Origin: Thermodesulfovibrionales bacterium
GTDB taxonomy: Bacteria > Nitrospirota > Thermodesulfovibrionia > Thermodesulfovibrionales > SM23-35
DNA: 64,000 bases
Assembly (NCBI GenBank): GCA_963716185.1
Contig: OY970295.1
Coordinates: 2,808,356 to 2,872,355 of the forward strand
Reading direction: 5' to 3'
Positions within the stretch are counted from its first letter, which is position 1; each line of letters opens with the position of its first letter. The position numbers and the translations under genes are program-made. Below, piece after piece: positions 24,928 to 58,825 of this stretch. Under the pieces are notes generated by a model. The model was not told the origin of the DNA and did no database searches. It worked only from the letters and a program-made list of their open reading frames with translations.

Positions 24928-26005
24928 TTATGCCTCATTATAGGCCGCTACATTTAAGGACTGTGCCCCTTTTTGTGCCCCCGACTTCATATCTAATACA
25001 GAAATAGCCTCTCTCAGGTTTTCAACTGAAAGATGAGCATATCTCTGAGTCATGCGGATATCTTTGTGTCCAAGCAATTTTGAGATTGTGTGAAGGTCAA
25101 CGCCTCTTTGTCTGAGATAACTCGCAAAAGTGTGTCTGAGGTCTGAGATCGTGGAAATGAAAGTTTTCTATTCCGGCAACTTCACACGCCTTTTTAAATA
25201 CCCGTTGAAGTTTAACTGGATATATTCTCTTACCGTTGTTGTGGAAGACGAAGTCTTCAATATCCTTTACTTTTTGCATTTCCCTGAATGTCTCAATTGC
25301 TTCAATCGTGAGCGGTAGCCCGATGCTCTCTTTGTTTTTCATTAGAGCGCCCTCGATTACCAAACACCGGGAAAAGAGATTTAGCCATGACCACTTCATG
25401 TTGAGAAGATTTGATTCTCTTAGACCTGTGTTAAGTGCGATTATCACTATAGATTTCAGCCATGCGGGGGCTGTCTTGTCATCGAGAGCATTAAACAGCC
25501 TGCCATATTCATCTTCACTGAGATACCGGACACGCTCATTTTTAACTTGCGGCATTTCGATTGAGTTTACAGGATTGTCCTTGATCCATTTCCATTTTTT
25601 AATGGCGACATTGAACATTCGTTTGAGAAGTCCCATTTCTTTTACTATTGTTGCGGGCATAATCCCCTTGGAATATCTATAACTCTCGTACTCTCCGATA
25701 AGTCTTTCAATGTCCTGTAACTGAGTGTCCTCTCCGAAGTAGGCTTCCAAGTGTTTAAAGATGCTTCTATCCCTTGCCTGATATTGTCTCCTTGAAGTGT
25801 ATTCGGCATCATATTTCTCAATCATCTCTTTTAGCGTTCTTCTTCGAGCCTCAATCCCAAACCATTCGCCTTCTGCAAGTTCATTTAAGACTTTTATCTC
25901 GATTTTTCTGGCAAGTTCCTTACTGCTTGTACCAGTTGACTTTCTTATTAATTTTCCTTGCCATTTAATCTTTATCCACCAGACTCGGCCCCTCTTTAAA
26001 AGCAT
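24928..26005 (-). pseudogene. tyrosine recombinase / phage-type integrase, frameshifted by a 7-bp tandem duplication
   Basis: The track ORF 25097..26005 ends ...HFHDLRPQTHFCELSQTKRR. Deleting one copy of gtctgag (25134-25140 / 25141-25147) restores HDLRHTFASYLRQRGVDLHTISKLLGHKDIRMTQRYAHL..., which carries the catalytic His and Tyr, down to a stop at 24928-24930. Confidence 0.85.
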
Positions 26006-26105
26006 TACATCACCTCCCTCTTGAGGTGGTCTGGTCTCCCTTTACGGGAGTATAAATTGACCTTGCCCCCCAAAACCTCCACGGGGGCAAAAAAAGGATG
26101 AATTT

Positions 26106-26399
26106 GTGAGGGCTATATATTATCTCAGAGAATACTTTGAGCAACTGACAAAAAAACCTCTAATGGGGTTAATTTCTAATATTCTTGATGATACCTTGGC
26201 TGACGCAAACTCAATATGGTATAGAAGAAAAAATAGTGTTGACCTAAATGTCATGGGTATGAATTCTCTTTGTGCAATTCAGAGACAGTATGAATATTAC
26301 AATAACAAGGGTTACATAAAAAAATCATTTGATACAAAGACCCCTTTATGGGAAATAATCAAGGAAAAACACCAAGAGGCAACTGGAAAGCATGATTGA
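26106..26399 (+). CDS. hypothetical protein (GTG start)
   Basis: 97-aa ORF with no recognisable motif. Confidence 0.3.
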   Translation: MRAIYYLREYFEQLTKKPLMGLISNILDDTLADANSIWYRRKNSVDLNVMGMNSLCAIQRQYEYYNNKGYIKKSFDTKTPLWEIIKEKHQEATGKHD

Positions 26400-26457
26400 G
26401 GGAGGTTAGAATGGGCATAACTTATGAAAGACACAAACATGAATTGGTAAAACCATA

Positions 26458-26610
26458 GGACGGAACCCCCCCGCTTGTATGCCTTGCTCAGATTATCGAG
26501 ATTCATGAGAACGATAAACTGTCGGTCAGGGATATTGCAAAACAAACCAAGATACCCCGTTCAACAGTCTTCAGAACAATTAAGCAGTTTAAAGAGGGGG
26601 ATTATTGATA
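26458..26610 (+). pseudogene. fragment of a small helix-turn-helix protein (no usable start codon)
   Basis: Hand translation: ...LAQIIEIHENDKLSVRDIAKQTKIPRSTVFRTIKQFKEGDY*. This is an HTH pattern, but the frame opens right after a stop and has no ATG/GTG/TTG. Confidence 0.4.
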
Positions 26611-27528
26611 AAGAGGGACTCCCCATCAACGGAAATCGTGCTGTCCCAAAAGGCAATACTTTTTCCTGTGTATGAAACCCATGAAAATCGCCATTCCGTG
26701 GCTCCCTAAAAACCTGTCTAACAGGGATTACGTTTTGAGACGGTCAATGGAATTCTTTATACAAAGATTGGGCTGAAAGTTTTTGACTGACTGGCACGGG
26801 GCGGGGAAATGATGAAAAAAGGAAAGATAACGGTATCGAGTATTCCAAAAGACTTATTGCAAAAAATATCGAAAGAAACCCAAGGATGAGAAATTTAGGA
26901 CAATAGAAGAAGAAGGTAGATTTGCCTCTGAGGTTTGGAAGAGATGTTTGCATTATGAGGGGGATCCTATTGATGTGAGTAAATTGCCTAAAGATTATGA
27001 TGTAGATGAATTGAATTATGATCCTGAAACAGTGTACAAACCAAAATTGCGAAAGACTACTAAAAAAATAAGGTACCTACTAAGAAAAAGTGATAAAGCT
27101 GGCAAAGCAAAATAATCAGGTGCCGCAATCTATGCACCACTTCAAAATTTAAGTATCCTCCCCTTTGGTTTGCACAACGAATTCATAATGTTTTCATATT
27201 TTCTTCGCCATTTCTTCATTTTTCCATAGTAATCTAAAGGTAGAAAATAACCTTCAACGTTCTTTCAGTAGCAGCCAGTAATCCCTCCTACTGGCTGCTC
27301 ACTCCTTTTAAACTAGAAATAGCAAATGTTTTTTGCACCCCCTTGAGTTCTCAAGTTTTGATAAAAAGGAAAGGGCATCACACCCAAAAACAAGACATTA
27401 GATCGGCTGGTGCTCTTTAAAGCTATTTTTGAATGTCTTGATAAATAGGACTTGTTATCTCAGACAGCAGCATTATGCCTGTCTCCGCTCTGGGCAGGAA
27501 AGTATCGAAGCCTACCCTACTGAGAAAA

Positions 27529-27879
27529 TTAAGTTTTGTTGATGCCTGAGATAATCCCTTTGGATGCTGAGAGAAATATAGTCTGCTTCTTCTTGTCCAT
27601 GCTTCTGAAAAGGCTTAATATTTCCGCTAACTCGGTTTCGATACCTTTGTCAGTTCTTCCCTGAGATATACTGATAAGATCCGAGAGCGGAATGTCCAGA
27701 GCTTTAGCCACCATATAGAAGCTGTACATAGAGGCATTGACTTTTCCCCGTTCTATGTCGGAAATGTAAGTCGGGTGTAACCCTGAGAGTTCGGCAAGCC
27801 TTTCCTGGGATATCTTCCTTGATTTTCTAACAGCCCTTATTTTGCTGCCAATGGTCTTGAGAAATGTAGTTGTATTCAT
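27529..27879 (-). CDS. XRE-family (Cro/CI-type) HTH transcriptional regulator
   Basis: 116 aa. ISQERLAELSGLHPTYISDIERGKVNASMYSFYMVAKAL. Confidence 0.85.
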   Translation of the reverse strand: MNTTTFLKTIGSKIRAVRKSRKISQERLAELSGLHPTYISDIERGKVNASMYSFYMVAKALDIPLSDLISISQGRTDKGIETELAEILSLFRSMDKKKQTIFLSASKGIISGINKT

Positions 27880-27914
27880 GACTAAGAGGATAGGGGAAAA
27901 ATAGGGGAAATATT

Positions 27915-27956
27915 AATAGTCTATAGTCTATATTCTGCTTGACTTTATAGACTATT
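27915..27956. promoter_or_regulatory. candidate operator: 11-bp perfect inverted repeat in the divergent XRE/28044 intergenic region
   Basis: aatagtctata (27915-27925) and tatagactatt (27946-27956), with an extra gtctata half-site between them and TTGACT (27939-27944) inside the spacer. Confidence 0.55.
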
Positions 27957-28043
27957 TAGGATAATTCAGAAGTGAATGTACCGACAAAGTGGAAACAACT
28001 ATTGTCTTGCAAATATTCAAATAAGTTTAAGGGGAGGATACAA

Positions 28044-28412
28044 ATGAGTCTAAAGAGAATTATTTGCTGCGGACTTGTGCTATGCATTGTTGGATTTCAC
28101 TATACCAACACTGTAATTGCTTCTGAGTCCTTTGTCTTTGGTAAGGCATGTTTAATTCAACCTGAAGAGCGGGACACTAAGAGATCGCCTGAATGTGGGA
28201 TGGAAGAATCACGACCCGAACAACAATCCACCCATGAAGAAATATTTCTGAAATTATTAGGTCTTTACGATTACGCTGCCATCTATGGTTCGGAGGATTT
28301 TCAGGTATTTGGTAAGGATAGAGATAGAGTCCGAGCTTTCTTGATGGTGCAACCCATTTTTTATTATGAAATAAATTATACAAATAAAAGAGGGAAAGAC
28401 ATATCTTTATAG
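28044..28412 (+). CDS. secreted hypothetical protein
   Basis: The ATG at 28044 follows aaggggagga. Signal peptide MSLKRIICCGLVLCIVGFHYTNTVIA. The track ORF starts earlier, at 27972. Confidence 0.5.
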   Translation: MSLKRIICCGLVLCIVGFHYTNTVIASESFVFGKACLIQPEERDTKRSPECGMEESRPEQQSTHEEIFLKLLGLYDYAAIYGSEDFQVFGKDRDRVRAFLMVQPIFYYEINYTNKRGKDISL

Positions 28413-28464
28413 GTGTAAAAAACAAGCCTCAAACTTAGAAAGCTGACAACTTTCAAAAAAATTA

Positions 28465-28650
28465 CTACTCCCCCCCAGCCTGAACAACAACCTTCCTATC
28501 CCTTTCCCGATTATCAAAATCCATGAAGACTATCTGTTGCCATGTTCCTAAAGTCAGTTTCCCTTTGATTATTGGGATTGTCAGGGAATGTGCGTGATGT
28601 CGAGGAAGATGAGGAATAGCATGTTTCTCAACCTGAAAAACACAACTCAC
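28465..28650 (-). pseudogene. C-terminal remnant of a YjbQ/UPF0047-family protein
   Basis: The 61-aa ORF ends ...HAHSLTIPIIKGKLTLGTWQQIVFMDFDNRERDRKVVV, which matches the family's C-terminal third. The N-terminal two-thirds are absent. Confidence 0.55.
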
Positions 28651-28718
28651 CCTTCGGGTAGTGTTAGAGGAAGTTACTGCTTCCTTCCTGTAACAAATGG
28701 GATCAAGAATTGATATAA

Positions 28719-28931
28719 TTGTGCGGAGTAGACATGGTAATAAATGTCGAGCATGAAATCGTCCCTTTTATATGTTCTCAGTGCGGTAAGAGCTTCAGTT
28801 ATGACCGCGGGGGGAAATGTAAAGTATGCAACAAATTGTTTTGTATAAGTCACTTACATCGAACCATCCTCGAAGGCCAGCTAATTTTTCTTTGCAAATC
28901 TTACAAGAAAACCATGAAAGAAAAAGAATAA
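28719..28931 (+). CDS. small zinc-ribbon protein
   Basis: CSQCGK...CKVCNK Cys pairs. The likely real start is the ATG at 28734. Confidence 0.4.
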   Translation: MCGVDMVINVEHEIVPFICSQCGKSFSYDRGGKCKVCNKLFCISHLHRTILEGQLIFLCKSYKKTMKEKE

Positions 28932-28949
28932 CGGCAATAACTCAAAGAT

Positions 28950-29550
28950 AGGTAAGCCACTGGTTTGACCAGTGAGACTATAAAAGGTTTGACCTTGCAG
29001 GATTAAGTAAGATAAACCTCCAGAGAGGCTTGACGGTAGTCAAAGTCTATCTGGAGGTTTATGGATAGTTACAAGAGATTAACACACTCGAAGTACGATT
29101 GTAAGTATCATGTGGTATTTGTTCCCAAAGGTCGGAAGAAAACGCTCTTTGGGAAAATCAGGAAGTATCTGAAGGGAGTATTTCACGAATTGGCGCGGCA
29201 GAAGGGATGCGAGATCATTTCTGGGCACATGGCGATGGATCATGTGCACATGTGTATTTCGATTCCGCCGAAATACTCTGTCTCAGAGGTGATAGGGTAT
29301 CTGAAGGGCAAGAGTGCAATAGCCGTGGCACGGCAATTTGGAGACAAGCAGAGGAATTTCAATGGAGAAAACCTTTGGGCTCGCGGATATGCTGTGTCAA
29401 CGGTTGGCTTTGAGCTGGACAAGATCAAGGAGTACATTGCCCATCAGGAAAAGCTGGACAATGAACAAGAAGAGGGCAGGTTTTAGTATAAACCCAAACG
29501 GCCGTCTTTGAGACGGCTCATAACCGTCAAGCCTCCCTCTTTGAGGGAGT
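28950..29550 (+). mobile_element. IS200-type insertion sequence (tnpA only) with terminal hairpins; boundaries approximate
   Basis: Left hairpin cactggt-ttg-accagtg (28958-28974). An 11-bp stem aaacctccaga/tctggaggttt (29014-29024 / 29050-29060) covers the SD next to the ATG. Right hairpins are gccgtct-ttg-agacggc (29501-29517) and ctccctc-ttt-gagggag (29533-29549). Confidence 0.8.
29061..29486 (+). CDS. tnpA: IS200/IS605-family Y1 (HUH) transposase TnpA
   Basis: 141 aa. YDCKYHVVFVPKGRKK, HMAMDHVHMCISIPPKYS (HUH) and WARGYAVSTVG (catalytic Y). Confidence 0.92.
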   Translation: MDSYKRLTHSKYDCKYHVVFVPKGRKKTLFGKIRKYLKGVFHELARQKGCEIISGHMAMDHVHMCISIPPKYSVSEVIGYLKGKSAIAVARQFGDKQRNFNGENLWARGYAVSTVGFELDKIKEYIAHQEKLDNEQEEGRF

Positions 29551-29553
29551 GTT

Positions 29554-29772
29554 ATGACTATCTTTGCTTTCGATGAAGGACAAGGGTTAAGTGAGCATAC
29601 TGCACCCTTTGATGCAATGGTCAATGTCATTGACGGTGAAGTAAAAATTATTATTTCGGGGAAGGATGACCTACTGAAGGAGGGGGAGTTTATTATAATG
29701 CCAGCAAATGAACCTCATTCCTTAAAGGCTGTAAAAAGGTTTAAAATGATCTTAACTATGATCAGGTCTTAA
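29554..29772 (+). CDS. cupin-domain protein, apparently N-terminally truncated
   Basis: 72 aa. EHTAPFDAMVNVIDGEVKIIISGKD...MPANEPHSLKA is the cupin_2 core. It begins 4 nt after the IS200 right hairpin. Confidence 0.55.
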   Translation: MTIFAFDEGQGLSEHTAPFDAMVNVIDGEVKIIISGKDDLLKEGEFIIMPANEPHSLKAVKRFKMILTMIRS

Positions 29773-29812
29773 ATCGTACAAGCGACAAATAAAAGAAATA
29801 TAGGTAGCCAAG

Positions 29813-30376
29813 ATGAACGATGAAGAAAAAACGAAAGAACAACTCATAAATGAATTGAAAGAATTGCGTGACGAACTTGCTTTTTTTAGAGCATTAAGTT
29901 CCGAAAAGATGCAAATTACAAGGGTATTAGAGGATTTTAAGGAGATATACGAGAATTTCTATAAATCCAATCCGCATCCAATGTGGATTTATGACCTCGA
30001 AACTCTCGCCTTTCTTGATGTCAACGATGCAGCTATAAAACATTATGGTTATTCACGGAAAGATTTTCTTTCTATGACCATCGAGGATATTCGCCCACCT
30101 GAAGATATCCCAGCACTTCTTGAAAATATCACAAAGGTTACTAAAGGGCTTGATGTAGCTGGCACATGGAGGCATATTAAAAAGGACAGAACTTTAATCT
30201 ATGTAGAAATCATCTCTCACACGCTGACTTTTGCAGGGAAGAAGGCTGAAATAGTTATGGCATTTAATGTCACCGAAAGAAAGCAGATGGAAAAAGAACT
30301 GAATGACTATAAGCAAAAATATGGTGAATTGCACCCTCCGTCTGATAACGATAATTTTATTGGTGGTTTAGCCTGA
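29813..30376 (+). CDS. coiled-coil + PAS domain protein without an output domain
   Basis: 187 aa. PAS core PHPMWIYDLETLAFLDVNDAAIKHYGYSRKDFLSMTIEDI...VTERK. No kinase or effector domain follows. Confidence 0.6.
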   Translation: MNDEEKTKEQLINELKELRDELAFFRALSSEKMQITRVLEDFKEIYENFYKSNPHPMWIYDLETLAFLDVNDAAIKHYGYSRKDFLSMTIEDIRPPEDIPALLENITKVTKGLDVAGTWRHIKKDRTLIYVEIISHTLTFAGKKAEIVMAFNVTERKQMEKELNDYKQKYGELHPPSDNDNFIGGLA

Positions 30377-30416
30377 AGATTGGTACTGCTTAATCTCGAC
30401 TTTATCGGACATTGTC

Positions 30417-30623: not shown

Positions 30624-30760
30624 TCTGATAGAATCAAAGGGGGATGGATGACCAATAAATGCGGGATAGAGATTTATAAATAAAATTGCCCTGAGTAAAG
30701 GGTTTAGAGAAAAATATGATGAGTAGAAGACAGACATGGAGTGACAATCAGTAATTTATT

Positions 30761-32386: not shown

Positions 32387-32395
32387 TAAAACAAA

Positions 32396-32424: not shown

Positions 32425-32439
32425 CCCGATTCCAATAGA

Positions 32440-32712
32440 TTATTTTACTGCATCCTTGAAAGCCTTACCCGCCCTAAATTTTGGAATCTTTCTGGCAAGA
32501 ATTTTTATCGCTTCTCCCGTCCTCGGATTCCTTCCAATCCTGGCTTTCCTTTTGCCAACGTGGAATGTTCCGAAACCGATAAGGCTCACTTTACTTCCCT
32601 TCTTCAGTGCCTTCTTGATTCCATCAATCAGGGAATCGAGTGCTTTTTCTGCTTCTTTCTTGACAATCTTTGCCTCTTGTGCCATTTTGTCAATGAGGTC
32701 TGTTTTCGTCAT
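32440..32712 (-). CDS. hup: HU-family DNA-binding protein (island copy 1)
   Basis: 90 aa. GFGTFHVGKRKARIGRNPRTGEAIKI arm motif. Confidence 0.92.
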   Translation of the reverse strand: MTKTDLIDKMAQEAKIVKKEAEKALDSLIDGIKKALKKGSKVSLIGFGTFHVGKRKARIGRNPRTGEAIKILARKIPKFRAGKAFKDAVK

Positions 32713-32838
32713 ATATGCCTCCTCTTGATTGTTATGTAAAATTATATCAACTTCTTATTGTAAATCAACTGCATTTGTAAATTGTTCGATATATCATCAA
32801 TAATTAGTTATCATCAAAGATTAAGAGGCTATCCAATA

Positions 32839-34182
32839 ATGAAAGTTGGCAGAAATGACCCATGCCCCTGTGGGAGTGGTAAGAAATATAAAAAGTGCTG
32901 TCTCAGTGAAACCTATACCGAGGTGGGCAAAGAAGATTCTATTAGGGCAAGGCTCGTTGAGGAACTTCTTGGGTTCTTTAATAAGAACTATCTATACACC
33001 TTGGAAGATGCCGAGTTGCTGTTCTGGGATGACTTCATTCCAGAGGAGCATCTTCAAGGTATCACCCTTGATATAGCATACCAGAACTTCTGGGAGTGGC
33101 TTGTTTTTGACCACATGATTGATGTGGATAATGAAAAAACCCTCGTAGACCTGTATATGGAGAGTAAGAAACTATCCATAGATGAGCATAAAGTCTTAAG
33201 CATGATGAAAAATTCAGTTATAAGCCTTTACGAGGTTCAAGAGGTATTCCCTGAGAAAGGGCTATTGTTGAAAGACCTTCTAATAGGTGGAGAATATGAC
33301 GTAAGAGAAAAGTCTGCCACAAGAAGTGCCAGAAAATGGGACATCTTTGCTGCAAGACTGTTTCTTGTTGATAACACCCATATCATGAGTGGTTCTGTCT
33401 ATCCCTATAATTTACGACAGAAAGAAAGGATACTTGAGGACATCCATGCAGAGTTTAAGGATTACAAACAAGAAAAGGGTCCCGATGCTTCTATGGATGA
33501 TTTCTTAAAGTATAACAGCGAATACTTTAACTTCTATTGGTATGACTCAATCCAGAACCCTATCCCAATAAAATTGCATACGACAAGCGGGGAGCCATTA
33601 TTGTTTTCAAAGGCAATATTTGAAATAGGAAACAAAGAGGCTGTTTTGGATGGATTAGCAAAGATTAAGGGCTTTGAACAGGAAAAGGATAATTTTGTGT
33701 GGTTTGATAAACGTGACAAGGAAGGGAGTGCCACGATTCTCGGTAGGGCTGAAATAAAGGGCAACAAACTAATACTGGAGAGCAATTCTAAGGAAAGGAT
33801 AGAAGAGGGAAAGAGGCTTATCCTTGAGGCTTTATCAGATGCCGTTATCCACAAGGTAGACACTTTCCAAGACCCTATGGAAGCAATGAAATCGTACAAG
33901 GAGAGTCACACTGAGGGACCCGTAAATGAACTGCCGATGGAAATCCAACAGCAATTCTACACCGAATTTATGCAAAAACATTCTGAAAAGTGGTTAAGAG
34001 AGAAAATCCCTGCCCTGAATGGCAGAACCCCTATGCAAGCCGTAAAGACAGAAGAAGGCAAAAGAAAGGTCATTGAACTATTGAAATACATTGAAAACTC
34101 AGAGGAACATAACAAAAGGGAAGGCAGACCCTTTTATGACATCTCATGGATGTGGGAGAGGCTTAAGATTGAGAGAGAGTAG
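32839..34182 (+). CDS. protein with N-terminal SEC-C zinc-binding motif, function unknown
   Basis: MKVGRNDPCPCGSGKKYKKCC at the N-terminus, from the ATG at 32839 (track ORF starts at 32782). The C-terminal ...IPALNGRTPMQAVKTEEGKRKVIELL resembles antitoxin-type helical domains. 447 aa. Confidence 0.7.
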   Translation: MKVGRNDPCPCGSGKKYKKCCLSETYTEVGKEDSIRARLVEELLGFFNKNYLYTLEDAELLFWDDFIPEEHLQGITLDIAYQNFWEWLVFDHMIDVDNEKTLVDLYMESKKLSIDEHKVLSMMKNSVISLYEVQEVFPEKGLLLKDLLIGGEYDVREKSATRSARKWDIFAARLFLVDNTHIMSGSVYPYNLRQKERILEDIHAEFKDYKQEKGPDASMDDFLKYNSEYFNFYWYDSIQNPIPIKLHTTSGEPLLFSKAIFEIGNKEAVLDGLAKIKGFEQEKDNFVWFDKRDKEGSATILGRAEIKGNKLILESNSKERIEEGKRLILEALSDAVIHKVDTFQDPMEAMKSYKESHTEGPVNELPMEIQQQFYTEFMQKHSEKWLREKIPALNGRTPMQAVKTEEGKRKVIELLKYIENSEEHNKREGRPFYDISWMWERLKIERE

Positions 34183-34185
34183 GCA

Positions 34186-35091: not shown

Positions 35092-35853
35092 ATGGCCCAT
35101 ACAGGAAGAAACGATCCCTGCCCTTGTGGGAGTGGGAAGAAATACAAAAACTGCTGTCTGAATAGAAGTGGAAGAGACTATTTTGTCGAAAATATTAATA
35201 TAAGCAAGACAAGAGGGGATGATGACATTATTCCTGTAGACACGGTAATTGATTACGGGCAACCATTTACTGATGAATCTTTTTTTAATACCAACAGTGT
35301 GCATGAATTGTCAGGACCTCGATTACTTTATTCGCTGATCCTCAACCCCCATGTTGAGGAGTTAGCACATAAAGCAGTTCGTGGGTTTCTTAATAGAGGC
35401 AAAGAAGAAATGGATCGAATTATAAATGCTGATGATGTAAAGTCCCTGATAGAAATAATGAGGAGGAATCCAGACCCGATAAACCATGTACCACTCATGA
35501 AAAAGCTTGTAAGGTATAAGGAAGAGGCTGTGCCAATGATTCTTCGGGAACTTAAAGAGCCTCAAAATGATTCATTTGTAGAGCTTTCAGCCAGAATACT
35601 ACACAAGGCTGGAACAAATTACTCGAAGGATATTATTGATATTATTAAATCAGGCAACAACAGAAGAGCTTATGTAATTTCAGTGCTGTGTGTTCTGCTC
35701 GGTTTCTATGATAATGACGAATCTGAAAAACTGTTGTGGGATTACTATCATTGCATGAAGAATACATACCCGAATAATACCTATTCTGACGGTCCGTTGT
35801 TGGGCTTGAAAGAGATACGAGAAAGAAGAAGGGAAAAGGCATCCCTGAACTAA
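35092..35853 (+). CDS. second protein with N-terminal SEC-C motif
   Basis: MAHTGRNDPCPCGSGKKYKNCC. 253 aa. Starts 1 nt after the upstream stop. Confidence 0.7.
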   Translation: MAHTGRNDPCPCGSGKKYKNCCLNRSGRDYFVENINISKTRGDDDIIPVDTVIDYGQPFTDESFFNTNSVHELSGPRLLYSLILNPHVEELAHKAVRGFLNRGKEEMDRIINADDVKSLIEIMRRNPDPINHVPLMKKLVRYKEEAVPMILRELKEPQNDSFVELSARILHKAGTNYSKDIIDIIKSGNNRRAYVISVLCVLLGFYDNDESEKLLWDYYHCMKNTYPNNTYSDGPLLGLKEIRERRREKASLN

Positions 35854-36345: not shown

Positions 36346-36618
36346 CTACTTTACTGAATCCTTGAAAGGCTTCCCGGCTGAAAATTTGGGTACTTTCCGA
36401 GCTGCAATCTTTATAGTTGCCCCAGTCTGAGGATTCCTTCCTGTCCGTGCTTTTCTTTTTGACACTGAGAATGATCCAAAGCCAACAAGTACAACCTTAT
36501 CCCCCTTCTTCAGAGCCTTAACAATGGAATCAATCGTTGCATTCAATGCCTTGCCTGCGTCAGCCTTTGAGAGTAAAGCTTCATTAGAGATTTTTTCAAT
36601 CAATTCTTCTTTTGTCAT
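36346..36618 (-). CDS. hup: HU-family DNA-binding protein (island copy 2)
   Basis: 90 aa. [26 protein letters not shown]. 58/90 positions are identical to copy 1 in my hand alignment. Confidence 0.92.
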
Positions 36619-37091
36619 AGAGTCCCTCCTTCAATATTGGTTGAGAGAAAGTATATCAAGAAGAAAGAATATAAACAAAAGGGGGAGAGCGGATCTTCCC
36701 GAAACTATTCAAGTTAAAAGAGGCTGGTGCGGTTATCGTGGGTTACCGATCGAGAGGGGAAAATTCCGCAGGGGCGTAAAATTACGTTTTCGTTAAAACT
36801 GGATCAGGGAAAAATTTTAAAATTTTGGCTACCTTCAAACTGGGGAAAAGCCGTTCTCCCGCTTTTTACTTTTTTGCTAAAGCAAAAAGTTCCCGAAATC
36901 TACCAAAACAAATTCGTTGACCTGCCAAAAGTATCTAAAAGACTGTGCCCCTTTTTGTGCCCCCTTAGCATGGAAAATAAGAGAAAATAATAGACACATT
37001 AGACACAATAGAAACTATAGAAATGGCTTAAAATAAGGCTTTGAAGGGAGACCAGCCACTATCAACGTTTTACAGAAAATCGCTTATTCGT

Positions 37092-37149
37092 CCTCTCAAG
37101 GCTAAAACACGGGTTCGAATCCCGTTGGGACCGCCAATAAAATCAATGA
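37092..37149 (+). repeat. att copy B: perfect 58-bp repeat of the tRNA-Glu 3' segment (island I / island II junction)
   Basis: cctctcaaggctaaaacacgggttcgaatcccgttgggaccgccaataaaatcaatga is identical to 24869-24926. Confidence 0.9.
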
Positions 37150-37716
37150 CTTACAACGTTTCTGCCTGTATCTTCTCATCTAAACGTGAAGAAAACGTGA
37201 AGTTGAGCTTCGACATTGCACTTCTCAACGAGTCTACATTGAGGTGTGCTAAAACCGTCAGTATTGCTCTCCTCCGAACAGAGAATAGGTTCCTGCTGTC
37301 CGTCAAAGAGGGTTCTCATAGTATCTTTTATCGCTTCATAAGTTCGAAATAATGTGCCGAAACAAATAGAATAGGATAGTCACCACTGAAAGAAAAACCA
37401 TACCCGAGACAGATAATATTCCTCTTAGAACATTTCTTAGATCTTCTACGGAGAGGCGTCCGGCCCACAGCAGTTGTATGAATGGCCACAGTATGTGCGG
37501 CGTTAGTTTCATCCTAATACGCATTTTGAACATGGGTCATTAGGTGAAGATTATTCTCGGAAATGTGCAGTCGAGGGGTTGCCGCGTTTGTGACTTCCGC
37601 CTATCGATACAGGTGATAAAATAAAATATATATCATATGGTCACAAGACTATCAAAGATTTCCTTGGGCACGGTAAAGATGGAATAGAATATAACGTTTT
37701 CAGTACCGGATCGCAT

Positions 37717-51341: not shown

Positions 51342-52489
51342 CCACTAGTGTAATGTCCCACTAATATCTTGACAATAATGGTTTATTGTGGTAAACTTTT
51401 TTTATGTGGGAAAAGGCAAACGCGTTGAAGATGACAAACGACCAGCGTGCGACATTGGAAGCTTGGAATCGGGCGAAGACCAGCCCTCAGCGAACGGTTC
51501 TACGGGCGCGCATTTGCCTGTTGGCGGCGGACGGCCTGTCGAATAACGCTATCGCCGCCCAACTGTCCACCTCCCGCCCGACAGTAATTCAATGGCGCAA
51601 ACGTTTTGAGGAGCACGGACCGATTGGATTGGCTGAGGACGCACCCCACGGCCCGAGTCCTCAGGCTCTTCCACTGGACCGAGTGAAGGCCATTATCGAG
51701 GCTACTCTCCACACGACCCCTCGCGATGCCACGCATTGGTCCGTGCGTTCGATGGCCAAGGCCCAGGGGGTCGGGAAGTCCACGGTGCAACGGATATGGG
51801 ACGCGCACGGTCTTCAACCCCATCGAATCGAGACATTCAAGTTGTCCAAGGACAAGCGGTTTGTCGAGAAACTGACGGATGTGGTTGGAGTATACCTGAA
51901 TCCTCCGGACAAGGCGGTGGTGCTGTGCGTCGACGAGAAAAGCCACGTTCAGGCATTGGACCGGACGCAGCCCGGCTTGCCGATGAAAAAGGGGCGATGC
52001 CGAACCATGACCCATGACTACAAACGCAACGGCACCACATGCCTATTCGCGGCATTGAACGTGCTGGAGGGTAAGGTCATTGGCTCCTGCTATCCGAGAC
52101 ATCGCAATATTGAATTTCGGAAGTTCCTGCGACAGATCGACGCAGCTGTGCCCGCAGAGTTGGCCATCCACATGATTTTGGACAACTATGGCACCCACAA
52201 CCACCCCAAGGTCAAAGCGTGGCTGGAAAAACATCCGCGTTTTCACCTTCATTTCACGCCGACCAGTTCATCGTGGTTGAACTTGGTGGAGAGATGGTTC
52301 GGAGAAATAACGCGGAAACGCATTCGGCGCGGAGTTTTCCGAAACGTCCCGGAACTCGTCGCGGCAATCGAAGATTTCATCCATATCAACAATGAGAATC
52401 CAAAGCCGTTCGTCTGGACGAAAAAGGTCGATGCTATATTGGAAAAGGTCGCTCATTGTAAAGCCGTTATAGGGACACTACACTAGTTG
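51342..52489 (+). mobile_element. IS630-family insertion sequence
   Basis: Terminal inverted repeats actagtgtaatgtccc (51344-51359) and gggacactacactagt (52472-52487), with 15/16 complementary. Single transposase ORF. Target duplication not resolved. Confidence 0.8.
51404..52486 (+). CDS. IS630-family DDE transposase
   Basis: 360 aa with an N-terminal HTH. VLCVDEKSHVQAL, DYKRNGTTCLFAAL, MILDNYGTHNHPKVKAWL, TPTSSSWLNLVERWF. Confidence 0.92.
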   Translation: MWEKANALKMTNDQRATLEAWNRAKTSPQRTVLRARICLLAADGLSNNAIAAQLSTSRPTVIQWRKRFEEHGPIGLAEDAPHGPSPQALPLDRVKAIIEATLHTTPRDATHWSVRSMAKAQGVGKSTVQRIWDAHGLQPHRIETFKLSKDKRFVEKLTDVVGVYLNPPDKAVVLCVDEKSHVQALDRTQPGLPMKKGRCRTMTHDYKRNGTTCLFAALNVLEGKVIGSCYPRHRNIEFRKFLRQIDAAVPAELAIHMILDNYGTHNHPKVKAWLEKHPRFHLHFTPTSSSWLNLVERWFGEITRKRIRRGVFRNVPELVAAIEDFIHINNENPKPFVWTKKVDAILEKVAHCKAVIGTLH

Positions 52490-52522
52490 CATAAAATAAT
52501 GCGAAAAAAAACGACTAAATCA

Positions 52523-52597
52523 TTGTAGTGGCCTCCTGTGTTGGATAAAATGGCGTTGCATGACATCTAAAATATCCAACACAGGAGGCCACTACAA
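52523..52597. repeat. 25-bp perfect inverted repeat with a 25-nt spacer
   Basis: ttgtagtggcctcctgtgttggata (52523-52547) and tatccaacacaggaggccactacaa (52573-52597). Confidence 0.9.
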
Positions 52598-52700
52598 GTG
52601 AATTTTAGCATAACATGCGGACGACACCTTCTTGGGTCTCGCACGGCCTGGCATCTTCTCTCCAGAGCAGACAAGGGCACGCCCCAATAAAGTGCCTTCC

Positions 52701-53666
52701 TTAGGCCCTCGCCTCACGCCGCGCGAGGATCAGCCCGGGCGCCATGGGCAGCCAGAAGGTGAAGAAGCGGAAGAGTAGTGTCGCCGCGAGAGCGGCGGCG
52801 ACCGGCACTCCGATGAGCTTGAGCGTGGCCACGGAGACGGCCTCGAAAACCCCAAGCCCCCCAGGAACTACTCCAAGCGTCCGCGCCAACGTCGAGAGCA
52901 TGAAGCTCGCAAAGACTGGCGCTGGATTGACCGTAAGACCGAGGGCCCACAGCATGACCCAGAGTGTCCCCGCATCGAGAACGAGGATCGCGAGCTGGAG
53001 GCCCGTGCACCGCGTGATGAGCGAGACATCGTGAGCAATGGCTGGCGTCGCCTCACCAAGCACTCGAAGTGCTGGCCTGATGAAGGGTAGCCGCTCGATC
53101 CAACCGGGCAGCGTCCGGCCGCGGCTCACCCACAGGAGGGCCATGGGAACGGCTGTTGCCAGGGGCGCGAAGATGCCCGCTGGCACGGCCATCAACGGTG
53201 TGAGGTCGCCGTGTACCCAGACGATACTGAGAGCGATGCCCAGAGCCAGAGTGTAGGCGGCGTAGTAGCTCACGAGATCGATGACGACCGCGGCCATACT
53301 TGCGCCACGCGGCACGTCGTGGCGGTCCAGTGCCCGGATGACGAGCAACGTGCCGCTCAGGCCAACGCTGGGAATGGCCTGGTCCATGAAGAGCTTCGAC
53401 AGCCCCAAACCGACATAGGACCGGAACGGCCTCGATATATTCGCGCGGCAAAGGACTCGCTGCCAGATCAGGGCGTCCGTCATGTAGGTTCCAATCTGGA
53501 GCAAGAGGGCGACGAGCAGCCAAGCAGGCCGAGCGTGGAGCATGAGCTGAGCGAAGGCCATCTCCTGGCTGTAGTGTGTGGCGAACATCACCACGGCGAC
53601 CAGGAGGCCCAGCCCAAAGAACCACGAGACCCAACGGGCGATAGCCTTTGGTCGACCCACTGTCAT
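52701..53666 (-). CDS. UPF0104 / lysyl-phosphatidylglycerol-synthase-TM-like flippase-type membrane protein
   Basis: 321 aa with ~8 TM helices, in a very GC-rich segment. The family call is from overall pattern only. Confidence 0.55.
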   Translation of the reverse strand: MTVGRPKAIARWVSWFFGLGLLVAVVMFATHYSQEMAFAQLMLHARPAWLLVALLLQIGTYMTDALIWQRVLCRANISRPFRSYVGLGLSKLFMDQAIPSVGLSGTLLVIRALDRHDVPRGASMAAVVIDLVSYYAAYTLALGIALSIVWVHGDLTPLMAVPAGIFAPLATAVPMALLWVSRGRTLPGWIERLPFIRPALRVLGEATPAIAHDVSLITRCTGLQLAILVLDAGTLWVMLWALGLTVNPAPVFASFMLSTLARTLGVVPGGLGVFEAVSVATLKLIGVPVAAALAATLLFRFFTFWLPMAPGLILARREARA

Positions 53667-53914
53667 CGTAAGCCCACAAGTCCAAGCAAGCGCCCAATAA
53701 CCGTCGTAACGGCCATATCGAAGCCGGCACCGACAACAGTTCGAATTGTTGCATGGCGGGTGTCCACCTCGGCGTGCGTGAGCCCTGTTTCTGGGTTCAC
53801 GCGGTGCTCCGCGAGCGCGTCGGAGACCGGCACGAAAGCGATATCGGGCTCCCTATCCGTTGCCGGCTTCGAGGTCGGGCTTTCCACTACGGATTTCTTT
53901 GTGACTGTTTGCAT
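53663..53914 (-). CDS. hypothetical protein (possibly a remnant of a cation-ATPase N-terminus)
   Basis: 83 aa. ...LAEHRVNPETGLTHAEVDTR resembles Cation_ATPase_N. The stop overlaps the downstream start (ATGA). Confidence 0.3.
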   Translation of the reverse strand: MQTVTKKSVVESPTSKPATDREPDIAFVPVSDALAEHRVNPETGLTHAEVDTRHATIRTVVGAGFDMAVTTVIGRLLGLVGLR

Positions 53915-53919
53915 AGTGA

Positions 53920-54053
53920 CTATCCTCCGATTCTTGTTACACCGACCACCACGGGGAAGCCGTGGTCGGCCATGTTCAGCAGGAGATACGCCCTATGACG
54001 CCCAAGCCGATTATGCCGATTTCATGTCCTGGTTGTGGACGCTTATTCGTCAT
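53920..54053 (-). pseudogene. N-terminal fragment of 6-phosphogluconate dehydrogenase (frameshifted)
   Basis: Hand translation: MTNKRPQPGHEIGIIGLGVIGRISC*, then in the next frame LLLNMADHGFPVVVG. Together these give the GxGxxG NAD-binding start of Gnd. Confidence 0.5.
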
Positions 54054-54072
54054 TGTTTTGCCTTCCGTAAGA

Positions 54073-54430
54073 TCAGCGCTGCCACAGGATCCGAGAAGCT
54101 TCCAGGGGAACCGTAACGCCGTCGTAGGACGGTATCACTCGCGCCGTATAGTCCTTAGATAGACGTGCCGTAGGCACCTGCGCGCTATAAACATAGTCGC
54201 TAGCCGTGCCTGCCAAGTGCAGGACACGCGTCATCTAATGCCGCACCGGATCGCCGCCGTTGACATTGCAGGAGAAGATATCTGGATAGAAGAAGAATTT
54301 CTCAAACGGGATGATCTGCCAGCCATTGCTTTAAGAGAGGCAATGGAGAGTTTTTCGGATCATGCGTTCCGAACGTGCAATCCTCACTTCGTCAGCATAA
54401 AGGTCGACTCGCACTGCATTCGAGTCGAGG
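54073..54430 (-). pseudogene. decayed 3' end of an alpha-glucan phosphorylase-like gene
   Basis: Hand translation on the minus strand, interrupted by stops: LDSNAVRVDLYADEVRIARSERM..., ...GGDPVRH*, ...YVYSAQVPTARLSKDYTARVIPSYDGVTVPLEASRILWQR*. Recalled as the C-terminal signature of that family. Confidence 0.4.
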
Positions 54431-54827
54431 TAAGAGAAGGTTTCAGCGGAGTTGGTTTCTTTTTGGCTATCATTAGTTCCTTTTATAAAAAGCAATTTTA
54501 TCACAAAGCATATTCATTTTCAAATTTTTTCTCCCTGTCCGGTTAGACATCAGCTACACCTAAAAATGAAGAAATATGTTTGGTGATTTACGTTTGAATT
54601 GCCGTATCGCAACCTGAAGTTCAAATATATATTTATGTACGTACATCACTCTCGCACCGGGGCATCGCATTGTGAGTTATTTTCAGTAATCAGCAGGGGA
54701 CGGAAATCTAAAAAACATTTAGTACTATGAGTTATGAGCAATAATTTCAAACAATTACTTGCGCGTAGTTGAAGGGGGACCTATGAACAATAGGTAAAAA
54801 GGAAAGCGATATTAGCCTTTAAGATAA

Positions 54828-55100
54828 TCATGAGTGCCGATCGATAAGTCTGCCTGATAAAAATTTATGTATAATGCTTGATACCAGTGTCTGATAGGGT
54901 ATTCCTTCCTCTATAGCCTTTACCTTTAAGGCGTCAAGGTCTTTTTTAGCTATACGGATATTCATACGCTGGTCTTTTGTTATGGTCGCTCTTGCATACG
55001 CTTTTGACCTTTTTATTTCTTCCTTCAGGTTGGGAATGGTCTTCCACTCATCTTTCTCAAGCGATTCCATCAATTCCTTTTCTTCTTTTGTCAGTTTCAT
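54828..55100 (-). CDS. brnA: BrnA-type (CopG/RHH) antitoxin
   Basis: 90 aa. ...DQRMNIRIAKKDLDALKVKAIEEGIPYQTLVSSIIHKFLSG. Confidence 0.7.
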   Translation of the reverse strand: MKLTKEEKELMESLEKDEWKTIPNLKEEIKRSKAYARATITKDQRMNIRIAKKDLDALKVKAIEEGIPYQTLVSSIIHKFLSGRLIDRHS

Positions 55101-55381
55101 TTTTGCTCTCCTTCCCTCCGCAGATATTTCTGGGTATATTTGCGGCTTGGGAATATTGTCTTTAAAAAACGCACCCCTCTTCTATCTTCGAAGGGTACTA
55201 CATATGCATAGTCGTCAACATCAATGACGTAGAGCTTTTGATCACTGTATTTCATCCTGGTTGGATGTTCCAGGATATCAAGTATACGGTCATTTAAAAT
55301 AAGAAACACAATTTGCTCAAATGAAATGCCTCGCTCCCTCTTGAGGTGCTCATTCTTGTCGTTGTCCCAATCAAAAACCAC
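55097..55381 (-). CDS. brnT: BrnT-type (DUF497) ribonuclease toxin
   Basis: 94 aa. MVFDWDNDKNEHLKRERGISFEQ... The stop overlaps the brnA start by 4 nt. Confidence 0.7.
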   Translation of the reverse strand: MVFDWDNDKNEHLKRERGISFEQIVFLILNDRILDILEHPTRMKYSDQKLYVIDVDDYAYVVPFEDRRGVRFLKTIFPSRKYTQKYLRREGEQK

Positions 55382-55635
55382 GATAATATGATAATCCTTT
55401 ATGTGTGCCTTTTGTCAATACAATAATTCAGCATAAGAGCTCCGAGTCCCCTCTGTTTGTGAATCAGGTAGACCTACTGAATCTCATAAACGCACCGTGA
55501 AGAAAACGTGAAGTAAACATATCTAAAACGATATAAACATATCGAAACATATAGAAGAGGGGAGGGCGGTGAAAAGCTTAATCTGCAAGGGTTTTTCCGG
55601 TATTTTCAAGCACTTGTCAGATCCTGCCTTTAACT

Positions 55636-55689
55636 CTCTCAAGGCTAAGACACTGGTTCGAATCCCGTTGGGACCGTCAAGCAAAATTC
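55636..55689 (+). repeat. att copy C: decayed repeat of the tRNA-Glu 3' segment (island II / III junction)
   Basis: ctctcaaggctaaGacacTggttcgaatcccgttgggaccgTca has 3 substitutions in the tRNA-derived part, and the tail has diverged. Confidence 0.8.
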
Positions 55690-56054
55690 TTAATAATTAC
55701 GGTATCTTTCCTTATTTAAAACCATTCTACGGAATGCTAAGAAATTCGTCGAATGAGTATTCATTTTGGTGTTTTTGTTGGTGTTTTAGAAATAGCGGCT
55801 CCAGTCGAGTCTGGTGATGACTTCTTAGCTTTTGGGGACGACGTGGGGATGACGTAGCGTCGTCTTCAGAGATGAGTGCACGGCTACGGACAGTGAACGA
55901 TTAAGTCCTGTCTGCTCGTCTCTTTACGAAAGGAACACCTCTTCCTCACATTGACCGATGTAATTAACACCTCCTACAAGCAGAGAATTTTATAAATCGG
56001 GGGACTTATTTATTTCCAAAAGAATATTTGGTATAAAGCTGAGTTTCAGAATAC

Positions 56055-57038
56055 TTAAGTGCTACCCTCTCTATCACGAATTGTGAAGTAAAAAGTCGAA
56101 CCTTTTCCAGGTTTAGACTCTACCCAGATTCTTCCTCCATGATGTTCTACGATTTTCTTACAGACTGCAAGTCCTATGCCGGTGCCTTGATATTCGTTTC
56201 TTGTATGTAATCGCTGGAAGAGTGAGAATATTCGTTCAAAAAATCTCGGCTCTATTCCAATGCCGTTATCCTTAATAGGGAAAACCCATTCATCTCCTTT
56301 CTGTTCGGCTGAGATATGGATTTTTAGGGGTTCATTGCCACGAAACTTAATAGCATTGCCTATTAAGTTCTGGAATAATCGGCTTAATTGAGAAGCATCT
56401 GCCGTTACAGTTGGCAGGAGATCATATGTCAGTTCTACATTGCTTTCTTTTATAACTGTGCGAAGATTGTAAATAGCCTCCTCTAAGGCTACTGAGCAAT
56501 TTATAGGTCTAAAGTTTTGTCTCTTTGTCTCTACCTGTGAATACGTCAGCAGATCTTTAATGAGTAGTTCCATTATTTTGACACCTGAAACTATATAATC
56601 AATGAACTCATCAGCTTTTTCATCGAGTTTGTCTTTGTATCGTTTCTCCAGTAATTGCACAAAGCTCGCTATAGTACGTAAGGGTTCCTGTAGGTCATGT
56701 GAGGCTACATAGGCAAATTGTTGGAGATCGGCATTCGACCGAGCCAGTTCCTTCATTAATATCTTCGACTGCTCCTCCGCCTGCTTGCGTTTTGTGATAT
56801 CTCGAATGTTGCATTGGATAACTCTGTTGCCATTCACAAGATAAACGTTACTGACAAACTCCACGTTGATGTTACGACCGTCTTTTGTTTCAAGCGGCAA
56901 ATCTTCATAACGGATATAACCTTTCTTTTGCAATTCTGAAAAAGCATTCTGTGATGACACAATATCTTTAAAAAGACCGATTTCCCAGAGTTTCTTTCCC
57001 AAAAACTCCTCATGAGGTAATACACTATCGATTTCCAT
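56055..57038 (-). CDS. PAS - HisKA - HATPase histidine kinase (cytoplasmic)
   Basis: 327 aa. H-box YVASHDLQEPLRTI, N-box NLIGNAIKF, G-boxes DNGIGI...GTGIGL. Confidence 0.88.
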   Translation of the reverse strand: MEIDSVLPHEEFLGKKLWEIGLFKDIVSSQNAFSELQKKGYIRYEDLPLETKDGRNINVEFVSNVYLVNGNRVIQCNIRDITKRKQAEEQSKILMKELARSNADLQQFAYVASHDLQEPLRTIASFVQLLEKRYKDKLDEKADEFIDYIVSGVKIMELLIKDLLTYSQVETKRQNFRPINCSVALEEAIYNLRTVIKESNVELTYDLLPTVTADASQLSRLFQNLIGNAIKFRGNEPLKIHISAEQKGDEWVFPIKDNGIGIEPRFFERIFSLFQRLHTRNEYQGTGIGLAVCKKIVEHHGGRIWVESKPGKGSTFYFTIRDREGST

Positions 57039-57182
57039 TTACATGCTGCATCTTATTAAGTATATAGCTGAGTTGACAAGGAAGAAGATGAGACTTGGTC
57101 TTTCTATGTCTGATAGGGCGAGTCCTATCTTCTATATTTTCTATAAAAAAGGAGCTTATTGGCCGGGCTCGCTCAATACAAA

Positions 57183-58286
57183 TCAATTTAGATGTGAACT
57201 AAATATTTCATCAAAACGGAAAGCTATTTGGGTGAATGCATTCAAAACAGCAGGGTTAAAGTGCTGTGGCATTGTCCTTCCGTCTCCCTCCGTAATGGTT
57301 CTGAAAGCTTCTTCATGACTCAAAGGAGGCTTGTACGGTCGTTTACTTCTGAGAGCGTCATACTGGTCTACAAGCATAACTATCCTGCCTTCAAGCGGTA
57401 TCTCGTCCTCCATCAACCCTCTCGGATACCCTCCGCCACACCATCTTTCATGATGATTTAATGCAATGGATGCTGCCAACTGTATTATCGGATTCGATGA
57501 ATCTGCCAATATCTTGCTTCCGAGGGTAGTATGTGTTTTCATTGTCTCAAACTCTTCCACTGTCAGACTGCCTGGTTTTAAGAGTATATTGTCAGGTATC
57601 CCGAGTTTCCCTATATCGTGCAGCGGGGCCGCGAGGATTATTGTCTCGACCAAATCATTATCTGAGTCCAGAGCTCTGGCAATTTCCCTTGAATAGTATC
57701 CTATCCGAGCAATATGGGCACCCGTATCAGTATCCCTGAATTCAGCAGTTGTGGATAACCGCTGTATAATCTCTAAGCTCATGTTTTTGACAGTAGATAC
57801 GGCATCAGCCAATTCATTCGTTCTAAGCATAACAGTATCTTCCAGGGTATTTTGATAATTATTTTGAGTCTCTGTTTTTTTGTAATAGTGAATAGCTTTC
57901 TCTATGACACGGATAAGATTGGCTGACTTATACGGCTTTGTAACGAAATCAAAGGCACCTCGTTTTATCGCATCGACAGCAATATCAAGTTCCGCATATG
58001 CAGTCATTAAAATTACCGGGATTTCAGGTTTAACATTATGGATCTTCTCAAGAAGCTCGATACCTGACACCACAGGCATCCTGATATCTGTCAGTACAGT
58101 AACAATTCTATTGTCTTGTAATTTATTGATGGCATCTTCTGCGTTTTCACAAGTGATAACTGACAAGCTATGGGATCTGATCAATGAGGAAACAGCTTCA
58201 AGAACATCGATATCATTATCTACAACAAGGATCTTTCCTTCTGTGTTGGTACTTATTAATTCCGGCATTTTCTTCACTTCTCTCAA
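57183..58286 (-). CDS. response regulator with HD-GYP output domain (RpfG-like)
   Basis: 367 aa. REC (ILVVDNDID...VLTDIRMP) followed by HD-GYP ([11 protein letters not shown]...[14 protein letters not shown]). Confidence 0.88.
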
Positions 58287-58667
58287 AAGCTTTTATCAGC
58301 AATTCGATTATCTTTCCTTCTCTCAAGTTACTCTTAGTTTCAGCGCATACGGGAAAAATGTCAATCCTACCGGGGTAGGGATGGTCGAGGCCCTTCTTAA
58401 CTTAAGACTTGGTAAATTCGTTATCTATTTTTATTTGTACTCGTGAGAATTGTCGCAGGCGCAAGGGGTGTTTGTAACAGAAAGGAAGGAGGTATTATTG
58501 AAAAAAAGATCTTGATTGGTGTCATTTTCGAGCCGAACTAATTTAGGTCGTACTCGATCCCACCGCATCGCCTCAGTTAAAAAGGATGCTGCGACGCAAC
58601 TGGCCCTTTTGGTGTTTTTTGGGTGTCACTACTTATAACTAATTGATAAATAAAGAATGGCGAAGCT

Positions 58668-58721
58668 CTCTCAAGGCTAAAACGCGGGTTCGAATCCCGT
58701 TGGGACCGCCAATAAAATCAA
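58668..58721 (+). repeat. att copy D: 54-bp repeat of the tRNA-Glu 3' segment, 1 mismatch (island III / IV junction)
   Basis: ctctcaaggctaaaacGcgggttcgaatcccgttgggaccgccaataaaatcaa. Confidence 0.88.
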
Positions 58722-58825
58722 GCACTTAGAGCTATTTTGCACTTTCTGTCACTTCAGAATGTAGCAGATTTGTAGCAAGCGCATTGAACTTCAGGAATTG
58801 TTTTATATTTTGTTATAATTAGTGT

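Follow-up and report, generated by a model that had tools for sequence, protein, structure and literature searches.

We analyzed a 64,000-nucleotide (nt) stretch of a Thermodesulfovibrionales bacterium genome (contig OY970295.1), referred to here as the window, in which a row of integrative islands follows a tRNA gene. Each island carries its own short tandem repeat close to its ends, and these repeats, the subject of this study, are very probably sites at which the integrases of the islands once bound. ARAGORN predicts tRNA-Gln (24760-24833) and tRNA-Glu(CTC) (24838..24913, plus strand; repeat family D1) at the left of the array. The 3′ half of tRNA-Glu(CTC), from the anticodon loop onward, is present in four copies, which bound islands I to IV. 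The first attachment site, att-A (24870-24923), runs from the anticodon loop onward in the genuine tRNA-Glu and is the attL core of island I, while att-B (37093..37146, plus strand) is at once the attR of island I and the attL of island II. The third copy, att-C (55636..~55680, plus strand), is degenerate, and att-D (58668..58721, plus strand) is a further member of the repeat family. Because the four att copies start at 24870, 37093, 55636, and 58668, the array comprises four islands lying head to tail. Island I measures ~12.2 kb, island II ~18.5 kb, and island III ~3.0 kb; island IV is open-ended.

Islands I, II, and III each contain an island-specific tandem 7- to 8-mer, repeated with a period of 11 to 12 bp, just inside both ends. 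In island I, AAGGACTGTGCCCCTTTTTGTGCCCCC is found at 24956-24982 and again at 36938-36964, with 26 of 27 positions identical; its unit is TGTGCCCC. The left (P′ arm) tandem site of this island (24959..24982, minus strand) reads GGGGGCACAAAAAGGGGCACAGTC on the int strand and encodes an SGAQKGAQS tail, and its proximal unit lies 48 bp from the tRNA's 3′ end. The right (P arm) tandem site (36941..36964, minus strand) lies 128 bp from att-B. The two copies in island II, CGTGAAGAAAACGTGAAGT at 37185-37203 and 55496-55514, are identical at 19 of 19 positions and have a period of 11 bp. Here the P′ arm site (37185..37203, minus strand; int strand ACTTCACGTTTTCTTCACG) encodes NFTFSSR and lies 48 bp from the pseudo-tRNA end, and the P arm site (55496..55514, minus strand) lies 121 bp from att-C. 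Island III has a P′ arm site at 55764..55787 (minus strand), directly after an integrase-tail scrap that ends in AAISKTPTKTPK at its stop codon, and a P arm copy at 58607..58626 (minus strand); the two have a 13-mer in common and are one indel apart, and their distances, 88 bp from the pseudo-tRNA end and 41 bp from att-D, are both noncanonical. Island IV carries a single copy of TGTAGCAGATTTGTAGCA at 58760-58777, a P′ arm site (minus strand; int strand TGCTACAAATCTGCTACA) 48 bp from the pseudo-tRNA end, and no partner copy was found in the window.

The longest word common to both arms is 24 nt in island I, 19 nt in island II, and 13 nt in island III, compared with a maximum of 11 nt in ~490 random windows per island, and no further copies of the island motifs occur across the 64 kb. 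A first-pass annotation of this DNA had placed the motifs at these positions and had called each of them unique to its island, and both statements hold. It had also described a common period of 11 to 12 bp, which we confirm with the correction that the island I period is 12 and not 11, and conserved offsets from both att boundaries. The offsets are indeed conserved in islands I and II and for the left copy of island IV, where the motif starts 48 bp from the pseudo-tRNA 3′ end as it does in the other two, but not in island III.

Every left-end copy of the motif falls within coding sequence, at the 3′ end of a tyrosine integrase gene on the minus strand. The integrase of island I, Int I (24928..26005, minus strand), is a pseudogene that matches Pfam PF00589 with an E value of 1.8e-40. 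The frame is lost between the segments encoding HFHDLR and HTFASY, where a tandem duplication of 7 bp repeats GTCTGAG on the plus strand (25134-25147). Removal of one GTCTGAG copy gives a full Int I of 356 amino acids (aa) that ends in AISVLDMKSGAQKGAQSLNVAAYNEA at a stop codon 15 bp from the tRNA 3′ end, and the GAQKGAQ in the tail of the repaired protein is the translated island I repeat. In islands II to IV, the integrase is reduced to tail scraps. That of island II (37151..37270, minus strand) is a C-terminal fragment ending in AHLNVDSLRSAMSKLNFTFSSRLDEKIQAETL or SAMSKLNFTFSSRLDEKIQAETL; those of islands III and IV end in AAISKTPTKTPK and ATNLLHSEVTESAK, respectively.

A homologue search with the repaired Int I returned 1753 sequences at an E value of ≤1e-20, chiefly from Nitrospirota and Thermodesulfovibrionales metagenomes, and 80 genomic loci were fetched. 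The integrase family is found in Nitrospirota, Desulfobacterota, Planctomycetota (anammox), and other metagenome-assembled genomes (MAGs), and the C-terminal tail classes among the homologues include GAQKGAQ, NFTFSS, ITNLSQS, STNLAQS, and ATNLLHS. In ~65 of the 80 related loci, the int stop codon lies 6 to 30 bp from a convergent tRNA gene. The targets are mostly Glu-CTC or Glu-TTC; Ala, Pro, Arg, Thr, and Gly tRNAs are also used, so the shared tRNA-Glu core that had been proposed applies to the islands here but not to the family at large.

The loci were scanned for a tandem motif 25 to 90 bp beside the tRNA (match of at least 7/8, 11-bp period), with windows inside int as controls. A tandem motif was present in 54 of 65 loci versus 131 of 1600 control windows (8%). 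In most loci, the proximal unit ends 46 to 50 bp from the tRNA, and minor groups lie at 59 to 61 and 66 to 69 bp; these steps of about one helical turn suggest that phasing may be preserved when the spacing changes. The units share the consensus xxxxCAC(A/G) with a variable 5′ half and fall into at least 15 motif classes, examples being TTAGCACA, TGACTACA, CTGCTACA, TTATCACA, GGGGCACA, CTTCACG, and TGGTTACG. Judging from this variety, the arm sites appear to have diversified into many specificity classes.

Both arms could be compared in 13 loci with the far att in reach, in elements of 4.2 to 9.8 kb. The far att in these loci is a 44- to 45-nt identity block spanning the tRNA from its anticodon loop to its 3′ end, and a second copy of the motif stands ~125 to 140 bp inside it, in direct orientation, in all 13 complete relatives. 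This is the same geometry as that of islands I and II in the window (128 and 121 bp). When stray copies of the 19-nt tandem were sought with up to 3 mismatches, a second same-strand tandem copy was found only in the 13 loci and only at the far-att position; the sole stray tandem was one weak 3-mismatch match on the opposite strand in locus L046.

The motifs of the window itself recur among the relatives. The identical 24-mer of island I is present in L083, whose intact Int is 71% identical, and close variants are present in L082 and L084. The island II motif occurs in the NFTFSS int tails of L002 to L007 and 8 metagenome contigs, and it serves as the P arm in 10 metagenome contigs, 7 of which have it at the window's exact 141 to 142 nt from the T-loop. 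The motif class of island IV is found on both arms of L051 and also in L055, L062, and L064. For islands I, II, and IV, the database comparison proposed in the first-pass annotation finds intact relatives bearing the same motifs; the island III motif is in none of the fetched loci.

Since the left copies are coding, and since the tail peptides STNLAQS, NFTFSS, and GAQKGAQ look conserved at a locus rich in integrase scraps, we considered that the right-end copy might be the leftover int 3′ end of an earlier, deleted element or that the repeat might be kept for its C-terminal peptide. Several observations contradict this. The homology at the right end stops at the edges of the motif, with no att remnant beside it, and the offset of 125 to 140 bp is repeated in 13 independent elements. 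In loci of the TTAGCACA class, third-codon identity is 0.89 in the motif but 0.46 in the strongly conserved catalytic HxDxRMTxRYxH box. Arm-site DNA resembling TATCACAAATTTAGCACA is read in two frames, as DYHKFSTM in L017, L018, L022, L023, and L025 and as FSTNLAQS in L014, L026, L027, and L029. In L015, L054, and L078, the motif lies past the stop codon and keeps its usual distance from the tRNA, and the tail of Int I is predicted to be disordered, with a predicted local distance difference test (pLDDT) score of <60 after residue 337. The wobble conservation, the two frames, the motifs beyond the stop, and the disordered tail make the conserved tail peptide a by-product of the DNA site. The codon-level comparisons thus indicate that selection on the motif acts on the DNA and not on the peptide. 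The leftover and peptide explanations are already largely refuted, and we give them very little credence.

If the motif is a DNA site, the architecture of the integrase bears on which protein reads it. The PF00589 catalytic domain covers residues 161 to 325 of the repaired Int I, and the tyrosine-recombinase catalytic residues R196, K223, H285, R288, H311, and Y320 do not vary among 38 relatives. An AlphaFold 2 model of Int I (pLDDT, 84.6) has strands at residues 2 to 5, 8 to 15, and 18 to 23 and a helix at residues 29 to 44. This N-terminal beta-beta-beta-alpha unit (residues 2 to 44; pLDDT, ~78 to 87) is followed by core-binding and catalytic domains. The best Foldseek match to the model in the PDB is full-length lambda Int (1z1b/1z1g; E value of 1.8e-12; 336 to 347 aligned columns). 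Int I is accordingly modeled as a three-domain, lambda-Int-like protein with a putative separate N-terminal arm-binding domain; PF12167 (Arm-DNA-bind_2) gives a weak match in 4 of 38 relatives.

A partial Mantel test with permutation was applied to 47 integrases, in which motif similarity was compared with identity in the N-terminal and catalytic domains. Motif similarity followed N-domain identity with the catalytic contribution removed (partial r of 0.49, P ≤ 0.0005), versus a partial r of 0.05 for catalytic identity with the N-domain contribution removed. Individual pairs illustrate this relationship. Int I and the integrase of L054 have the GGGGGCACA motif in common and are 35% identical in the catalytic part and 54% identical in the N domain. 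In L026 and L029, which come from the same MAG (JACOUO01), the N-terminal domains (~50 aa) are 100% identical and the TTAGCACA motif is the same, while the catalytic parts are 40% identical and the targets are Glu-TTC and Ala-CGC. This pair looks like a domain swap.

The covariation also bears on the idea that the elements have a replicating, plasmid-like form, in which the repeats would act as iterons or partition sites. Iterons are typically built from short direct repeats whose period is 11 bp, and some relatives carry primase- or replication-like genes, such as the DUF3987 gene in L083. However, an iteron-type origin would be expected to have at least three units, with a rep gene and an AT-rich region adjoining, and each site here has two units. 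The sites stand at fixed distances flanking the att core and never by the replication-like genes, the elements contain no other copies, and variation in the motif follows that of the Int N-terminal domain. We regard an iteron function as highly improbable, the least likely of the explanations considered.

The P arms contain additional conserved features between the tandem site and the core. In island I, phased short repeats (36973..37023; period of 9 to 10 bp, ~4 copies) read TTTCTAT-like on the int strand, and TTCTAT-type repeats stand at the corresponding position in the P arms of aligned relatives (A2). Island II has phased AAACATAT-type repeats (55515..55556; period of 10 bp, ~4.2 copies), an array that is also present in L144. 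These additional short repeats had been noted in the first-pass annotation and are real; they are confined to the P arm, and by analogy with lambda and L5 their position makes both arrays candidate sites for an excisionase (Xis). Nearer to the core of island I is a conserved P-arm block (37047..37073, minus strand; int strand TAAAACGTTGATAGTGGCTGGTCTCCC), read from the sequence, within which TAAAACGTTGATA at 37060-37072 (int strand) fits the integration host factor (IHF) consensus YAANNNNTTGATW. The aligned P arms of the relatives have a CTTGATTTTG..GGTTTCCCCGTTTT block nearest the core, then a fit to the IHF consensus WATCAANNNNTTR in many loci (e.g., AATCAAGCAGTTA), and outermost the TTCTAT-type phased repeats followed by the tandem pair. 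The P arm of island I conforms to this layout.

Upstream of Int I lies the remnant of an xis-like HTH_17 gene (26010..26057, minus strand; ~16 codons), which abuts int in intact relatives; an HTH_17 (excisionase-family) gene is in this position in L014, L029, L032, L082, L083, and L084. Beside the truncation point of this remnant is an inverted pair, TTGCCCCC and GGGGGCAA (26063..26090), which had been described as related to the arm motifs. The pair exists, but it agrees with the arm unit at only 7/8 positions, and, in the 220 bp upstream of int, units resembling the arm motif were found in 4 of 46 relatives versus 74 of 440 control windows. In the three closest intact relatives, the xis gene occupies the place of the pair and no such pair is present. 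An Int operator at this position was therefore rejected as a family feature.

These accessory genes raise the alternative that the tandem repeats are sites for an accessory protein, be it the HTH_17 Xis-like factor, an island HU protein, or a regulator, that organizes both ends of the element. The xis-like gene lies directly upstream of int and is coinherited with the Int N-terminal domain, so the covariation could track Xis, and head-to-tail repeats at about one helical turn would suit winged-helix directionality factors. Two HU-family genes are encoded in island I, one at 32440..32712 (minus strand; PF00216, E value of 1.9e-33) and a second adjoining the P arm at 36346..36618 (minus strand; PF00216, E value of 2.9e-34). 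In lambda and L5, directionality-factor sites are confined to one arm. The tandem pair, in contrast, is found on both arms, and the separate phased repeats occupy the expected one-arm position. HU binding is sequence nonspecific, and an accessory role for the tandem pair would leave the lambda-like Int N-terminal domain without a target. We judge the accessory reading unlikely, if somewhat less so than the others discussed above.

The geometry in the relatives, the covariation with the N domain, the wobble conservation, and the match to lambda Int together lead us to read the repeats as arm-type Int sites in a lambda- or L5-like attP. Each tandem 7- to 8-mer pair is very likely the arm-type site of its own island's heterobivalent (lambda-type) tyrosine integrase. 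The first-pass annotation had proposed arm-type recombinase sites of a diversified family, and this proposal is supported by the 13 relatives with both arms, the 54 of 65 loci with a tandem motif, and the N-domain covariation. In the free element, the P side of attP would consist of the tandem site, ~40 to 60 bp of phased repeats (probably for Xis), an IHF/HU bend site, and the core. The P′ side would continue from the core at the anticodon loop through the 44-nt tRNA 3′ half and ~48 bp more to the other tandem site, located inside the last int codons. Int would contact the core through its core-binding and catalytic domains and the arm repeats through its N-terminal beta-beta-beta-alpha domain, and DNA bending would bridge the arms and the core to form an intasome. 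Integration into tRNA-Glu would then leave one arm pair at either end of the island.

Several points weigh against this interpretation. For every member of the family, the binding of Int to the arm sites is deduced rather than observed, as are the bridging of the arms to the core and the roles of Xis and HU/IHF. Neither Pfam nor NCBIfam identified an arm-binding domain in Int I, even when residues 1 to 60 were searched alone. The physical linkage of xis to the int 5′ end means that the covariation test cannot fully separate the Int N domain from Xis. For the exact class I and class II motifs, no contig of a relative was retrieved that carried both arms, the far ends lying beyond the 10-kb flank or the contigs being too short; a metagenome scan for these classes found P′ and P arms separately and no contig with both ends, although L144 has two P arms. 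Island III is the weakest of the four cases. It breaks the spacing rule, with 88 bp in place of 48 bp and 41 bp in place of ~125 bp, and its motif is of low complexity and absent from all fetched relatives. The island III P′ site is in its normal place relative to the end of the integrase AISK helix, and the aberrant offsets most likely arose through indels as the island decayed.

With Int I frameshifted, xis truncated, and int lost from islands II to IV, the sites in this genome are probably relics. All four islands are decayed, and the system is dead.

Related arrays and flanks were also observed elsewhere. In L144 (Ga0209164_1006560), class II P arms are found at 42-59 and 9451-9468, 9.4 kb apart and in the same orientation, with a degenerate att core after the first; elements of the island II type seem to form a further tandem array on this contig. 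L082, the closest intact relative (Int 81% identical to Int I), has a flank whose order matches window positions 23832 to 24913, namely, a 214-aa TPM-like gene, tRNA-Gln, tRNA-Glu, and int. The source of L082 is probably a related organism in which a live element of the island I type persists.

Other contents of the islands are varied. Island I contains an insertion sequence (IS) 200-like Y1 transposase gene (29061-29486, plus strand) and a 56-nt repeat, 86% identical, at 32848-32903 and 35104-35159. The repeat encodes the N-terminal SEC-C motif of two proteins from island I (32782-34182 and 35092-35853); the first of them also has an Xre/MbcA/ParS antitoxin C-terminal domain. The cargo of island II comprises transporter-like and other chromosomal-looking genes, contains no mobility genes, and is compositionally foreign to its neighbors: the G+C content at 52000-54000 reaches 54 to 62% versus ~40% in island I. 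Island IV carries a DDE (IS4-like) transposase gene (59259-60965, minus strand) adjoining a small cassette of two genes (58826-59207). A lone integrase scrap, KLLRYRDGRMTQRYAH (61383-61430, minus strand), lies ~2.7 kb to the right of att-D, with neither a tRNA fragment nor a tandem motif alongside.

The lambda intasome contains arm-type sites P1, P2, and P′1-3 flanking the core, an IHF-induced bend, and Xis sites on one arm. The present family resembles lambda in its three-domain Int and in arm sites that flank the core and are unlike it in sequence. Also shared are a long P arm with a block resembling a bend site and phased repeats beside the arm sites and, in intact relatives, a small xis-like gene upstream of int. 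It differs in that the identity between the integrases is only ~22% and in that the core here, with its 44-nt identity block, is placed in the anticodon loop of a tRNA. Each arm here has exactly two units in the same orientation, with the P′ sites within the int coding sequence. The Xis-like protein here belongs to the HTH_17 family, and our picture of the present system is drawn from sequence and a structural model.

A closer precedent is provided by the Cluster J mycobacteriophages, in which attP lies 3′ of int with a 44-bp tRNA core that starts from the anticodon loop (PMC3706429). Pairs of imperfect direct-repeat arm-type sites are found on each side of that core, the N-terminal arm-binding domains vary between related integrases, and an upstream helix-turn-helix (HTH) gene encodes a putative directionality factor (PMC3706429). 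The family described here matches L5 and Cluster J in the position of attP, the 44-bp core, the paired arm sites, the variable N domains, and the HTH gene upstream of int. Since this layout has been published (PMC3706429), the design was already known, and the geometry, which the first-pass annotation had not known to be described for this tRNA-Glu element family, is not new. There are differences. The Cluster J core lies ~100 bp past the int 3′ end, whereas int here reaches to within 7 to 15 bp of the tRNA, so that the P′ sites, unlike those of Cluster J, are coding. The arm-like inverted sites at the int start in Cluster J are not a family feature here, and the Cluster J hosts are unrelated to the Nitrospirota, Desulfobacterota, and Planctomycetota MAGs in which this family occurs.

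In Mx8 of Myxococcus and in SSV, the crossover lies inside the int open reading frame, and integration alters or splits the gene (PMC6070905, PMC7253208). The systems are alike in that recombination-site DNA overlaps the integrase coding sequence. Here, however, only the arm sites overlap int, and the crossover, in the anticodon loop, falls 50 bp or more beyond the stop codon, so that integration does not alter int. An attP inside int of the Mx8/SSV type was thus set aside, as att identity begins in the anticodon loop and the int stop lies outside the tRNA. What is particular to this family is the P′ pair inside the int coding sequence and an unusually constant spacing, together with the many arm classes, several of which are found in one tandem array.

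The arm pair and the Int N-terminal domain may form an exchangeable specificity module that evolves apart from the core-binding and catalytic module, a proposal that we offer tentatively, as a possibility rather than as the expected outcome. If it is true, the distinct arm classes of the four islands in the window would prevent the integrase of one coresident element from assembling or excising another and would allow tandem accretion at one tRNA; with the P′ site coding, the integrase tail would also be rewritten whenever the arm class switches.

The analysis gives the island-specific repeats a probable function, presents the array as four fossil integrative elements, and defines a large, previously unstudied integrase family. 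As the mechanism would be the classical one of lambda and L5, a specialist should be interested but not surprised. The regularity of attP in this family makes element ends and arm sites predictable from sequence, with offsets of ~48 bp from the tRNA end and, inside the far att, ~125 bp. The family further offers dozens of natural pairs of N-terminal domains and arm sites, material with which the reading of DNA by arm-binding domains may be deciphered and then engineered.

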